DNA from: Candidatus Heimdallarchaeota archaeon
GTDB taxonomy: Archaea; Asgardarchaeota; Heimdallarchaeia; Heimdallarchaeales; Kariarchaeaceae
DNA: 32,000 nt
NCBI GenBank assembly: GCA_030149205.1
Contig: JASBSB010000007.1
Location: 600,001 to 632,000 of the forward strand
Direction: 5' to 3'
The position numbers and the translations under genes were made by a program. The notes under the pieces were generated by a model. That model was not told where the DNA came from, searched no databases, and saw only the letters and a program-made list of their open reading frames with translations. This document shows positions 25,242 through 30,871 of this stretch, piece by piece. Position 1 is the stretch's first letter. The number at the start of each line of letters is the position of its first letter.

Positions 25242-25769
25242 ATGGATAAAATATTTGTACAAACATTAAAAACCCCTTTTGCAACATTTTTAGTAGGAAT
25301 CTTAAATGATTCTTGCTGTATTTTTGAATATAAAGAAAGGAGAGGTCTAGAAAATTTTCTAATGAAGCTAGAGGAAAATCATTCTGCATTAATTGTAAAT
25401 GAGGAACATAATTTACATAAGGATATTCAAAAAGAATTTAAGATGTATCTTGATGGGACTCTCAAAACTTTTAGCATTCCATTAATATTTACTGGAACAG
25501 ACTTTCAAAGGTTGGTCTGGAATGAAGTATTAAAAATTGAATTTGGGAAAACATCAACTTATAAGGATCTTGCTAAGAAACTCAATTCAAGTCCCCGTGC
25601 AATTGGAAGTGCAAATGGTGCAAATCATCTAGCGATTCTTGTACCTTGTCATCGTGTTGTCTCAGCGACTGGTGGATTAGTTGGCTATGGTGGGGGATTG
25701 AATCGTAAAAAGAAGTTGTTGGAATTTGAAAAAAAATATTCCCAACCGAGACTTTCACAATGGGTTTGA
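25242..25769 (+). CDS. ogt: methylated-DNA--protein-cysteine methyltransferase
   Basis: GTDFQRLVW, PRAIGSANGAN, VPCHRVV (active Cys), LVGYGGGL. Confidence 0.95.
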   Translation: MDKIFVQTLKTPFATFLVGILNDSCCIFEYKERRGLENFLMKLEENHSALIVNEEHNLHKDIQKEFKMYLDGTLKTFSIPLIFTGTDFQRLVWNEVLKIEFGKTSTYKDLAKKLNSSPRAIGSANGANHLAILVPCHRVVSATGGLVGYGGGLNRKKKLLEFEKKYSQPRLSQWV

Positions 25770-25774
25770 TCTGC

Positions 25775-26251
25775 TTATTTGTCTGAATAAACCCTAGAAA
25801 GAAATGTTAAGAGATCTGTATTCTCTGTTTTACAGTTGTAGAGTTTGAGAACAACTGTAAGTTGACCCCTATGATACGCACTGTGGAAAGGGAACTGCAG
25901 AACAAAATTAGTTGCTTTTATTCCTGAGAACTGTTGGAGTTCAATTTTTGTTTCTTCTGATTTGTGTGATAGGTTCTTCAGTCCTACGTCTAGCTTCTTC
26001 CAATACTGAAATAACTCCCGAAGTTCTAAGTTTTTAACATCTTTCCTGTCATCCTTGTTCAAATCTCTTTGTTCAGAAAGAATCAAGACACATCTCAACT
26101 CAGCAAGTACAATATGTTGGCATAGCTCAAAAAGAGATTTGAACCCAGGGAGCTTAGTCTTAATCATTGACTCGTCAAGCTTTTCAATCATCTCTCTGTA
26201 TTTTTCGTTAGCCCAGATATTATACTCAAATATTAGGTCTGATGTAGTCAC
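25775..26251 (-). CDS. DinB/YfiT family protein
   Basis: YNIWAN, SLFELCQHI, HSAYHRGQL metal-binding His motif. Confidence 0.85.
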   Translation of the reverse strand: MTTSDLIFEYNIWANEKYREMIEKLDESMIKTKLPGFKSLFELCQHIVLAELRCVLILSEQRDLNKDDRKDVKNLELRELFQYWKKLDVGLKNLSHKSEETKIELQQFSGIKATNFVLQFPFHSAYHRGQLTVVLKLYNCKTENTDLLTFLSRVYSDK

Positions 26252-27686: not shown

Positions 27687-30600
27687 GTGAAAATTAAGAA
27701 TCAAGTCAAGCGGCAACAGATTCTCTTTCAGGAGTATACCGAAAATAAATTGATTGGTGTAGATGAATCAGGAAAATCACACAAATTTTCAATTGATGAC
27801 CCGTGGGTAGAATTTCTAAAATATTTAGAACCCTTTGACATATTGTTAATTGAACATGTGGGAGGTAGGGTGGATAACAGAGGTTTTATGGTAATTGAAC
27901 CACACTATTTGGTCGCAGTAACAAGTGTTATTGATTCTATTACTTGCCCAAGGAAGGTTTATGTCAAATCACTGGGTGCTGATCAATTAATGGATGCAAA
28001 TATAAGGAAGAGAGTGGTTGAGGGTAATTTACTGCATGACGTTTTTTCTAAACTCGTTGCAACAGATATGGATGTTGAATCTGCCATAGATTCAACATTA
28101 GCGCATTCAGAGCTTGATTTGCTACATTTACAGATAGAAAAAGATGAGGCTCATGATTACCTTCAAAAAGATACTGGACCTCTAAGTGGGCTAAGTATCC
28201 GTGGAGATACTGAACTAGACTGTCAAAATTGGCATCTGGGATTACACGGGAAGTTTGATGGAATCTCAGGGAACCAAATCATTGAGTTGAAATCATCCAA
28301 GATACCTCAAACAACACCTTGGCCAAGTCATAATATTCAAATGAACATGTACACCCAGATGATGAAAAAAAGGGGTGTTTATACAGGAAGTGTCCTATAT
28401 ATAAATGATGGTGAGATGGGTTTAAAACTCCCTACCGTATTTGAGCGAAACCAGAGCATTACAGCAAGAAATTACTCCTATCTTGTTCTGACAAAGCGAT
28501 ACACCCCTCCTGTCCTAAGAGGAGACAAACTTAAGGAATGTAGAACCTGCTTTGTTAAAGAAGGATGTAGAAAACTCTGTGCTGGATTGGGCACTCAAAG
28601 AGACTGTCAGAACTGTTATCATGAATTTTCCTGTGATAAGAACCTTTGGAGCTACCAATCACTAAACTATTTTAGCACCTTTAATTCCTCACTCTATGCT
28701 GAAGAGATAGGAAACATACGAGAATCTTACACCTATTCACGTGTTGGGATAAGAGATGAAAAACATAGGAAGAAACTACTTGAAAACGGATATGCTGTTG
28801 AAACAAGAGAAAAACTTTCAGAAAAATTAATTGATGGATATTATGTCAGTCAGTTTTCACAATATTCTACAATTCCAAGGTTTAGATCAGGAGATAGAAT
28901 TAGGGCTTACAATATCGGTGATACCCACGACTTTGTAACATTATATTACACTGCTGTAATCCTTGAAATAAACGATGAATCTATTATACTTAGATCAGAA
29001 AACTCTCTCCCCCAAAAATTGGCTTTAGTACCGGCTAACATAAGCTCTGTCTTACGTAGATCAAGATTTGCAGTATTTCAAGCAGTTCAGCAACAACAAG
29101 ATTCAATTTTGATGCAAATTATTGTTAAATCTTACTCAGAAAAGAAATTCAAACTAGAAGATATCAAAAATACAGACACTAAGATCATTGATCCACTTAA
29201 AATGTATAACAGTGATCAAGAACAGGCAATTCGATTCTCTCTTTCAACCCCTGATATCTTTCTGATACAAGGACCTGCAGGGACGGGAAAAACAAGTGTA
29301 ATAATTGAACTTGTGAACCAAATTCTAAAGAGGGGAAAATCAGTCCTTTGTACAGCATACACAAATATGGCTGTTGACAATATTGGTCTTAAACTAATAG
29401 AGAATGATTTGGATTTTGTAAGACTAGGATATGAATACTCTATCTCCACTGAGCTAAGAGATCATATAATATCAAATAGAAGAGAATACTATTCAGAGGT
29501 TATTCAAAACAAAGGTGGATATGTCGTCCTCTCAACAACAAGTACAATTGCACGTGATGTGTTCCAAGATTTACGTTTTGACTATGTAATCATCGATGAA
29601 GCAGCTCAGATGACTGAACCAGACAGTATTAAACCAATTTTATTAAGTGAAAAAGCAATTTTTGTTGGTGATCATGCACAATTACAACCTATAATTTCAT
29701 CTCAAGAAGCTCTTGATAAAGGGTTACAGATCTCTCTTTTTGAAAGACTAGTGAATCAGTTTCCGAATAGATATTCACTGTTGTCCTATCAATACAGAAT
29801 GAACGATGAGATTCTAAGTTTTCCCAACCATAGATTTTATGAGGGGAAACTCAAATCTGCGTCTGTAGAAATTGGACATAAGATGCTCAACCTACCAGAA
29901 AAACTGCAGACGATAGAAAAGAACAATGCATATCAGGTGTTTTCTGTAAGTCAAGAATCCAATGGCACTATCTCACAAATTAATCTCGCAGAAATTGCCA
30001 TTGTTATTAAGATTTTGTACGACCTTATTGTTTTGAGTGAACTTGACCCAACAGAAATAGGGATAATAACTCCTTTCAGAGCGCAGGTTGCAAAACTTAG
30101 GTCATTTCTCCCAAAATCTTTGATTAAAATAGATACCGTGGACAGATTTCAAGGATCAGAGAAACCAGTAATAATTTTCTCGACAATCACAAGTTTAGAG
30201 GTTCCCATTTTAACAGATGAAAGACGTTTAAATGTGGCTTTAACGAGAGCTCAAAAACTATTGACACCAATTGTTACTAACCCCACAATAACAGGTAAAA
30301 CAAGTATCATTCAAGAATTATATGCAGATGCGAAACTGAGGGGACTGGTAACTTCAGAATTTGGTTCTGATGTTCTGGATGAGTCATTGCTTAACACACA
30401 ACTCCAAGAAATTTGGGCTAGTTGCGGCTTATCTAGGGATCCAGTTTCCAGATTTAGACTTGAACTTGAAGTCTCATCAGTAAAGATAAACTCAATTGAT
30501 GTTTTCTTCGACTCGATCCAATTAATTATAGAACAACTTTCCACCCCTGAAACCTGTATGATCTGTTTTAGTGAAACGGATAATGCAGTTTCCTGTCCTG

Positions 30601-30695
30601 GGTGCTTGAACTATTACCATCAAGAGCACCTAATTACGTGGCTTCAATCCAAACCATTCTGTCCAGTGTGTAAACATCACCTATCTTTGGTGTGA
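27687..30695 (+). CDS. dna2: Dna2-like PD-(D/E)xK nuclease-SF1 helicase with C-terminal RING-like zinc finger
   Basis: Dna2-type EPHYLVAVTSVIDSITCPRK; nuclease GLHGKFDG...IIELKS...HNIQMNMY; CxxCx5C; SF1B motifs QGPAGTGKT, TAYTNMAVDN, IIDEAAQ, VGDHAQLQP, YQYRM, TVDRFQGSE, RRLNVALTRA; C-terminal CMIC-x9-CPGC-x4-HQEH-x10-CPVC. Confidence 0.88.
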   Translation: MKIKNQVKRQQILFQEYTENKLIGVDESGKSHKFSIDDPWVEFLKYLEPFDILLIEHVGGRVDNRGFMVIEPHYLVAVTSVIDSITCPRKVYVKSLGADQLMDANIRKRVVEGNLLHDVFSKLVATDMDVESAIDSTLAHSELDLLHLQIEKDEAHDYLQKDTGPLSGLSIRGDTELDCQNWHLGLHGKFDGISGNQIIELKSSKIPQTTPWPSHNIQMNMYTQMMKKRGVYTGSVLYINDGEMGLKLPTVFERNQSITARNYSYLVLTKRYTPPVLRGDKLKECRTCFVKEGCRKLCAGLGTQRDCQNCYHEFSCDKNLWSYQSLNYFSTFNSSLYAEEIGNIRESYTYSRVGIRDEKHRKKLLENGYAVETREKLSEKLIDGYYVSQFSQYSTIPRFRSGDRIRAYNIGDTHDFVTLYYTAVILEINDESIILRSENSLPQKLALVPANISSVLRRSRFAVFQAVQQQQDSILMQIIVKSYSEKKFKLEDIKNTDTKIIDPLKMYNSDQEQAIRFSLSTPDIFLIQGPAGTGKTSVIIELVNQILKRGKSVLCTAYTNMAVDNIGLKLIENDLDFVRLGYEYSISTELRDHIISNRREYYSEVIQNKGGYVVLSTTSTIARDVFQDLRFDYVIIDEAAQMTEPDSIKPILLSEKAIFVGDHAQLQPIISSQEALDKGLQISLFERLVNQFPNRYSLLSYQYRMNDEILSFPNHRFYEGKLKSASVEIGHKMLNLPEKLQTIEKNNAYQVFSVSQESNGTISQINLAEIAIVIKILYDLIVLSELDPTEIGIITPFRAQVAKLRSFLPKSLIKIDTVDRFQGSEKPVIIFSTITSLEVPILTDERRLNVALTRAQKLLTPIVTNPTITGKTSIIQELYADAKLRGLVTSEFGSDVLDESLLNTQLQEIWASCGLSRDPVSRFRLELEVSSVKINSIDVFFDSIQLIIEQLSTPETCMICFSETDNAVSCPGCLNYYHQEHLITWLQSKPFCPVCKHHLSLV

Positions 30696-30871
30696 CAAAA
30701 ATGATTGCATTGAGTCTCAAATCAGAGGTTTTACATAGATATAGTTTATACTAATAGAAACATATTTGAATTCTTATCTAAATTTTTACTGATTTAATTC
30801 TCATTGTAGGTAACATTTAAATAAAGTCCTCAAATTTAGATTTACTCAAAATTAATTGAACGGTGTTATAT

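Follow-up and report, generated by a model that had tools for sequence, protein, structure and literature searches.

A Dna2-type nuclease–helicase with a C-terminal RING-H2-type finger in Heimdallarchaeia

Replication and repair are under ubiquitin control in eukaryotes (PCNA, RPA, Fanconi and resection factors), and a nucleic-acid motor and a RING-type module are united in one polypeptide in Rad5, HLTF, SHPRH, Rad16 and UPF1. UPF1, which has a RING-like CH domain, and the nuclease–helicase Dna2 are both members of the Upf1-like SF1B helicase family. A 2025 paper on the Asgard replisome related eukaryotic Dna2 to some Asgard homologues in a published tree; the words RING, ubiquitin and zinc finger do not appear in it (PMC12680538). 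Here we describe Dna2-RING, a protein encoded in a 32,000-nucleotide stretch of DNA from Candidatus Heimdallarchaeota archaeon (assembly GCA_030149205.1, contig JASBSB010000007.1, positions 600,001 to 632,000; hereafter the window), in which a Dna2-type nuclease and helicase are followed by a RING-H2-type zinc finger. An earlier note on this DNA, made by a model from the letters and their open reading frames (ORFs), had proposed such a fusion. Our analysis puts three things on solid ground: the domain architecture, the identity of the tail as a RING and the existence of a cognate ubiquitin system in the genome. The best explanation of the finger, which we hold to be probable though well short of certain, is that it forms a working RING ubiquitin ligase (E3) module on a Dna2 body. 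A core DNA-processing enzyme is fused to a module of ubiquitin-ligase type in an archaeal class that is widely discussed as standing near the eukaryotic ancestor, and the finding suggests, though it does not prove, that a link between ubiquitin tagging and DNA maintenance predates the eukaryotes. What is new is the combination of two known kinds, Dna2 and a RING E3 module; the earlier note knew of no described example, and we likewise found no paper on a Dna2–RING fusion among open-access papers and preprints.

The body resembles mouse DNA2 (5EAN/5EAW/5EAX) in the order of its iron–sulfur (Fe-S) PD-(D/E)XK nuclease, barrel/stalk and SF1B helicase, and the catalytic and cluster residues are kept. 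Eukaryotic Dna2 differs in having no RING end, as the earlier note had held (the tail occurs in 0 of the 27 eukaryotic Dna2 sequences in our hit list); overall identity is about 21%, and the extra four-cysteine cluster of Dna2-RING belongs to the archaeal family. For the finger, an archaeal parallel is offered by srfp of Caldiarchaeum, a RING-H2-type finger whose ligands 3 and 4 are shifted and which has one additional cysteine (PMC5654768; compared by description). The Caldiarchaeum system, like this genome, comprises a ubiquitin precursor, a ubiquitin-activating enzyme (E1), one ubiquitin-conjugating enzyme (E2) and an Rpn11/JAB protease. However, srfp is small, stands alone and has its gene in the ubiquitin operon, whereas the finger described here ends a 1002-residue DNA enzyme encoded far from the ubiquitin and E1 genes.

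Eukaryotic RING-H2 E3s (Arkadia/RNF111, RNF165, Hrd1, gp78, RNF12, RNF13 and RNF38) share with the finger profile homology, the fold, a hydrophobic E2-binding triad and a basic residue after the last cysteine. They differ in having C-x-H where Dna2-RING has C-x2-C, and here ligand 6 is a histidine and the finger sits on a nuclease–helicase. The analogy to Rad5, HLTF and SHPRH that had been drawn in the earlier note holds for the functional likeness, but not for helicase superfamily or domain order: Rad5-type proteins use an SF2 Snf2 ATPase with the RING between the helicase lobes, whereas Dna2-RING has an SF1B helicase and a C-terminal RING. In UPF1, whose helicase kinship with Dna2 is also visible in our helicase and Foldseek comparisons, the CH domain is N-terminal and regulatory, and a nuclease domain is found in neither UPF1 nor the Rad5-type proteins. 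The likeness to both is one of analogy, not of membership.

The Dna2-type body and its RING-H2-type finger

Pfam recognizes Dna2 (PF08696) at residues 27 to 163 (E 2e-12) and an SF1 helicase at residues 507 to 860 (AAA_11, E 9e-40; AAA_12, E 5e-43), and the helicase half matches the mouse Dna2 helicase with E 5e-52 (phmmer). The full-length AlphaFold2 (AF2) model has a predicted local distance difference test (pLDDT) score of 88.3 and a predicted template-modelling (pTM) score of 0.88. Its top three Foldseek matches are the mouse Dna2 structures 5EAN, 5EAW and 5EAX (for 5EAN, E 1e-47 and template-modelling (TM) scores of 0.70/0.67 over ~1050 columns), and the helicase-only relatives IGHMBP2, Upf1 and Sen1 lie well below them. 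We aligned 38 family members over their full length (27–48% identity). Residues D191, E200, K202, Q218 and Y222 of the nuclease motifs D...E-x-K and Q-x3-Y are invariant in this alignment, as are the four Fe-S cysteines C87, C285, C288 and C294 (one N-terminal cysteine plus C-x2-C-x5-C) and the helicase motifs Q, I, II, III, IV, V and VI. The pattern of ligand cysteines predicts the binding of a [4Fe-4S] cluster in the nuclease domain.

All Dna2-like proteins form one clade, with 99% support in the Shimodaira–Hasegawa-like approximate likelihood-ratio test (SH-aLRT), in a quick maximum-likelihood tree of 59 rows that was rooted on IGHMBP2-type helicases and came with a single long branch and warnings on composition. 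Eukaryotic Dna2 (100%) is sister to the prokaryotic Dna2-like group (98%) as a whole, and this group comprises two RING-bearing Heimdall clades together with RING-less bacterial and haloarchaeal forms, the fork among them being without resolution. Eukaryotic Dna2 was not recovered as the specific sister of the RING-bearing proteins in this tree. Given the Pfam Dna2 and SF1 helicase matches, the end-to-end 5EAN fold, the invariant residues and the 99% Dna2 clade, the protein is a genuine Dna2-type nuclease–helicase, in line with the intact motifs that the earlier note had read, and flap nuclease and 5′–3′ translocase activities are predicted for it.

The finger has the ligand string C-x2-C-x9-C-x2-C-x4-H-x2-H-x10-C-x2-C at residues 957 to 995 (positions 30555 to 30671), precisely where the earlier note had located a Cys/His string. 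All eight ligands (C957, C960, C970, C973, H978, H981, C992 and C995) are invariant in the 38 aligned members; other positions of note are I959, L982, W985, P993 and K996. The invariance of nuclease, helicase and finger residues across these members lies far above chance; the three sets are invariant together, and the three modules are under joint purifying selection.

A profile of 34 tails matched Arkadia (3.6e-11), synoviolin/Hrd1 (6e-10) and AMFR/gp78 (6e-10) in the Protein Data Bank (PDB), followed by RNF165, RNF126, RLIM and RNF38 (E up to 1e-7). In the Arkadia alignment, the usual C-x-H of ligands 3 and 4 becomes C-x2-C by way of a cysteine three residues upstream, and ligand 6 is a histidine, which gives a C4H2C2 finger with one Cys2His2 site and one Cys4 site. 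The Pfam family zf-RING_2 covers residues 956 to 996; its cut-off is 27.3 bits, and the score is 22.6 bits when the whole protein is scanned and 28.0 bits when the scan is confined to the last 102 residues. A tail-only model reached pLDDT values of 96–98 over the finger, and its best Foldseek matches are the RINGs of RNF12, RNF165, RNF13 and RNF38 that were crystallised with E2 or ubiquitin-charged E2 (TMt 0.57–0.70, root mean square deviation 1.8–2.9 Å, probability 1.0); the E value of these matches is only about 5e-3 because the domain is small. The Arkadia alignment and the fold matches point to a cross-brace order of the ligands. Sequence profiles and models together indicate that the tail is a genuine RING-H2-type cross-brace finger with variant spacing.

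Other assignments of this region were considered and rejected. The resemblance to RINGv or Nse1 that had been suggested in the earlier note did not survive: RINGv reaches 16.8 bits, short of its cut-off of 21.6, the sixth ligand is a histidine, Nse1 appears only at Foldseek rank 20, and the finger is instead a relative of the RING-H2 type. A PHD finger or a zinc ribbon, the two folds against which the earlier note had set its RING, fared no better, as the Pfam list contains no PHD family, ribbon families reach only E 0.26–0.28 and all confident fold matches are RINGs. A conserved aliphatic-aromatic-aromatic motif before the finger is not a PCNA-interacting (PIP) box, for it lies in a confident β-strand of the hairpin and is not kept in distant subclades. 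The helicase and the finger are separated not by a linker of ~75 residues, as had been estimated, but by a spacer of about 95 residues that is mostly structured in the models (helices and a β-hairpin).

Spread and integrity of the fusion

A database search returned about 50 full-length relatives with 27–48% identity, the named ones being from Heimdallarchaeota, Kariarchaeaceae or Hodarchaeales. The finger tail is present in 51 of 53 archaeal family members; of the two exceptions, one carries an aspartate in place of ligand 6, and an in-frame TAG cuts the other. A survey of orthologues, which the earlier note had proposed, found the finger on 28 of 29 orthologous ORFs with one genome taken per species. 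In three genomes of the class, an in-frame TAG interrupts an otherwise intact orthologue, either of the E2 (G048:C10:19632-20030 and G054:C20:29860-30258) or of Dna2-RING (G036); these codons may reflect errors of sequencing, pseudogenes or recoding.

The assembly is of metagenome type (3.3 Mb, 12 contigs, 93.5% complete). The earlier note had raised the concern that a frameshift or an assembly error might have joined an independent RING gene to Dna2, and a chimeric assembly or a miscalled stop could have the same effect; we found no support for an artefact of this kind. In the probable source run, the region lies in one contig at a depth of about 79, and a contig from an unrelated hydrothermal-vent metagenome covers positions 30379 to 30724 (linker, finger and stop) and differs by substitutions alone, indels being absent. 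Because the fusion is kept in dozens of independent assemblies, closed genomes included, and an independent contig spans the linker–RING junction, we consider a frameshift or chimeric join excluded, and an artefact of any such kind has a vanishingly small chance of being the explanation. Forcing all RING-bearers into a single clade is not rejected (p-AU 0.52, approximately unbiased test), so that the data can accommodate a single origin of the fusion.

The gene is single-copy, and by family in Heimdallarchaeia it is present in 9/11, 1/1, 31/31, 11/22, 1/2, 0/3 and 0/12 genomes. In a sample of 251 genomes from across the phylum, nothing beyond helicase-only matches came from the other Asgard classes, and the full architecture was found only in Heimdallarchaeia. 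The N-terminal half alone, searched against 1.84 billion representatives, gave 39 matches (E <= 1e-3), nearly all of them from the Dna2-RING family, and this search yielded no closer RING-less sister. No neighbour is conserved between families, and we rejected an operon reading; the flanking genes encode a CLC channel, MGMT (O6-methylguanine methyltransferase), DinB, a major facilitator superfamily (MFS) transporter and a subtilase. Two neighbours recur in one sister family only, an SBP_bac_5 protein and an unannotated ORF. The MGMT gene and a divergent DinB-family gene, at 25242 to 26251, lie two genes upstream of Dna2-RING, an arrangement that is not kept in other families.

These data bear on a reading in which the protein is an immune or conflict nuclease–helicase in the manner of Prometheus, ZNFX1 or MkoA, with the RING as a signalling or effector domain. 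Dna2-like nuclease–helicases do occur in defence systems, and Prometheus has been reported in Asgard archaea including Kariarchaeaceae (PMC13700489); in addition, the N-terminal half is highly specific to the lineage, part of the class does without the gene, and PADLOC gives strong but helicase-only matches to MkoA as well as matches of the nuclease to Cas4. However, Prometheus has an N-terminal DUF4011 and a C-terminal DUF3320 around a Dna2-like nuclease with an insertion (PMC13700489), and neither domain was found in Dna2-RING in the Pfam scan. The fold is Dna2 from end to end, the PADLOC matches are generic to helicases and Cas4 and name no specific defence family, and no conserved neighbour or island context was observed. 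Moreover, nearly every genome of three families has the gene, in a single copy, and the two main clades of the protein carry different taxonomic labels, as under vertical descent. We therefore regard a defence role as improbable, and the distribution is better explained by a dispensable gene for genome maintenance, inherited vertically, than by a mobile gene for defence.

The E2-contact surface and the ubiquitin toolkit

Beyond the ligands, the finger keeps the positions at which RING E3s contact E2 and prime ubiquitin. The residue between the first and second cysteines (959) is aliphatic in 38/38 members; the tryptophan of the helix that the earlier note had singled out is W985, kept in 34/38; the proline after the seventh ligand (P993) is found in 33/38, and a lysine or arginine directly follows the last cysteine (996) in 28/38. 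The only archaeal RING E3 that has been reconstituted biochemically, srfp of Caldiarchaeum subterraneum, is impaired in ubiquitylation by the substitutions I30Q, W58A and R69A (PMC5654768). On the description in that paper, these residues are the counterparts of I959, W985 and K996 of Dna2-RING. This correspondence with positions shown to matter in srfp is the strongest argument, by homology, for the tail as an E2-docking module. A co-fold of the RING module (residues 931 to 1002) with full-length E2 and two zinc ions gave scores of 0.55, 0.01 and 0.02, and carries no weight either way.

The genome encodes the partners that such a module would need, and bears out the ubiquitin components that the earlier note had expected of an Asgard host: ubiquitin, E1 and one active E2 are present in this Heimdallarchaeia genome. 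An 81-residue ubiquitin precursor ends in GG-LEY, and its stop codon abuts the ATG of a 325-residue E1 (G000:C2:577097-578320). A JAB protease is also encoded; the ubiquitin and E1 genes form a compact pair, and those for E2 and JAB are located elsewhere in the genome. Three ORFs are UQ_con-like, and an HPN...Cys active site is found in one only. The other two (249 and 213 codons; G000:C8:40450-41196 and G000:C2:502927-503565) lack the catalytic cysteine, have coiled-coil tails and are paralogues of the ubiquitin E2 variant (UEV)/Vps23-like kind.

The active E2 (G000:C8:171690-172145) occurs in 81 of 83 genomes of the class with 52–78% identity; its HPN...C site is invariant, and its loops PFKPP and W-x-P-A are invariant or nearly so. 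Translated from the first ATG, it has 135 residues and is without helix α1. Upstream of this ATG, however, 18 codons are conserved in all orthologues, many of which have a methionine where this genus has ATT or ATC, and the sequence comparison indicates that translation probably starts at a non-canonical isoleucine codon, which would give a protein of 152 residues.

Nine zf-RING_2 matches were found in the genome, and all of them match the profile of the Dna2 tail (E 5e-6 to 1e-26), so that by sequence the finger is one member of a paralogous RING family of this genome. Two other members of this family stand on large proteins. A 973-residue SF2 helicase (ResIII/DEAD/Helicase_C) with an N-terminal RING (G000:C2:619490-622411) constitutes a second helicase–RING fusion, and ubiquitin wired to nucleic-acid motors may be a general theme of the lineage. 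A 690-residue protein combines a PCI-like region and a double zinc ribbon with a C-terminal RING (G000:C7:264934-267006).

Several observations weigh against a working E3. The Pfam RING score is borderline, as the whole protein falls short of the cut-off and the isolated tail only just exceeds it, and the C4H2C2 ligand set is non-canonical. In the subclade P0045-P0051 (Hodarchaeales-labelled), the proline is replaced by valine or alanine and the lysine by glutamine or histidine, and the RING surface or its E3 function may be weakened, different or decaying there. The E2 does not track the Dna2-RING gene, and there is no signal of co-occurrence between the two. High-quality genomes of the class, closed or >95% complete ones among them, lack the gene (present in 0/3 and 0/12 in two families and in 11/22 in a third), which is therefore dispensable. 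For the Dna2-RING family as a whole, E2 binding and ligase activity are predictions from sequence and models, and RING folds can act as pure interaction modules.

The chief alternative starts from this last point. The finger would then be a non-catalytic zinc module, an adaptor with a RING fold that links Dna2 to a partner such as a replisome or repair protein, dimerises or stabilises the C terminus, all without E2. RING folds act as interaction domains in many proteins, the borderline score, the unusual ligand set and the relaxed contact residues of the P0045-P0051 subclade are as expected on this view, and the flanking β-hairpin and C-terminal strand seem to resemble the flanks of dimeric RINGs. 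On the other hand, the non-ligand residues that are kept are exactly those with which eukaryotic RINGs and the proven archaeal RING contact E2 and prime ubiquitin, and the finger shares a paralogous family with the other RINGs of the genome and a lineage with a conserved single E2. We consider a purely structural role unlikely, though a serious contender, and prefer the reading of the finger as an E3 module.

With an E3 module on a Dna2 body, the protein could work as follows. The body would act as a 5′-flap and DNA-end nuclease coupled to a 5′–3′ SF1B helicase, as expected of a chromosomal, single-copy Dna2 homologue, to which the lineage has added a C-terminal module made of a helical spacer, a flexible hinge, a β-hairpin and the RING-H2-type finger. 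Through I959, W985 and P993, the finger would dock the single active E2 of the organism in its ubiquitin-charged form, and K996, the lysine after the last cysteine, would prime the discharge of ubiquitin. The ubiquitin could then pass to Dna2 itself or to adjacent proteins on flapped, resected or stalled DNA. Tentatively, and as a possibility rather than an expectation, we propose that Dna2-RING is a ubiquitin ligase guided by DNA structure: once threaded on a stalled fork, a 5′ flap or a resected end, it would recruit charged E2 through its hinged RING and tag nearby replisome or repair proteins (for example, PCNA, RPA, Fen1 or Mre11–Rad50) or Dna2 itself. If this proposal holds, it would provide the first prokaryotic link between ubiquitin and genome maintenance, and a hallmark of the eukaryotic DNA-damage response would already have been forming in archaeal relatives. 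With a toolkit as small as one ubiquitin, one E1 and one E2, the question lends itself to a direct test. Should the finger prove inactive, it would still mark the lineage cleanly and would warn against taking every RING of Asgard archaea for an E3.

Layout of the gene

The coordinates of the gene and its domains are collected in Table 1.

Table 1 Features of Dna2-RING in the window
Feature	Position (nt)	Strand	Residues	Remarks
Dna2-RING, whole gene	27687..30695	+		Single open frame, 1002 codons/aa; GTG start; stop 30693-30695
N-terminal all-beta domain	27705..27896	+	about 7-70	Strands 7-18, 21-25, 31-36, 52-58 and 67-70 in the AF2 model
PD-(D/E)XK nuclease domain with Fe-S ligands	27900..28577	+		Pfam Dna2 and Cas4 matches
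Fe-S cysteine	27945-27947	+	C87	
Fe-S cysteines	28539-28568	+	C285/C288/C294	
Second four-Cys cluster	28578..28634	+	C298, C307, C310, C316	Directly after the canonical Fe-S motif
Stalk helices and beta-barrel	28653..29138	+	about 323-484	Between nuclease and helicase; aligned in the 5EAN match
SF1B (Upf1-like) helicase, domains 1A/2A	29199..30281	+		Pfam AAA_11/AAA_12
Helicase Walker A	29271-29294		529-536	
Helicase DEAxQ			637-641	
Helicase GDxxQ			661-665	
Helicase QYR			702-704	
Helicase motif V			816-823	
Helicase motif VI			847-854	
Family-specific helical extension	30294..30482	+	about 870-932	Helices 874-884, 899-912 and 922-930; sequence conservation poor
Beta-hairpin packed on finger	30492..30554	+	936-956	Strands 936-941 and 944-957; pLDDT 96-98 in the tail-only model
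RING-H2-type C4H2C2 finger and 7-residue C-terminal strand	30555..30692	+		Eight invariant ligands

In the AF2 model, the stalk and barrel are built from a helix at residues 323 to 366, strands within residues 371 to 449 and a second helix at residues 454 to 484. The helical extension is closed by a hinge at residues 928 to 932, where the pLDDT of the models falls below 50.

The N-terminal all-beta domain lies within the end-to-end match to 5EAN and is probably of the oligonucleotide/oligosaccharide-binding (OB)-like kind, judged by its position, as in Dna2. The second four-cysteine cluster, for which the model has low pLDDT at residues 308 to 315, is absent in the Hodarchaeales-labelled subclade P0045-P0051 and present in 33 of the 38 aligned members, where it may form a second metal centre.

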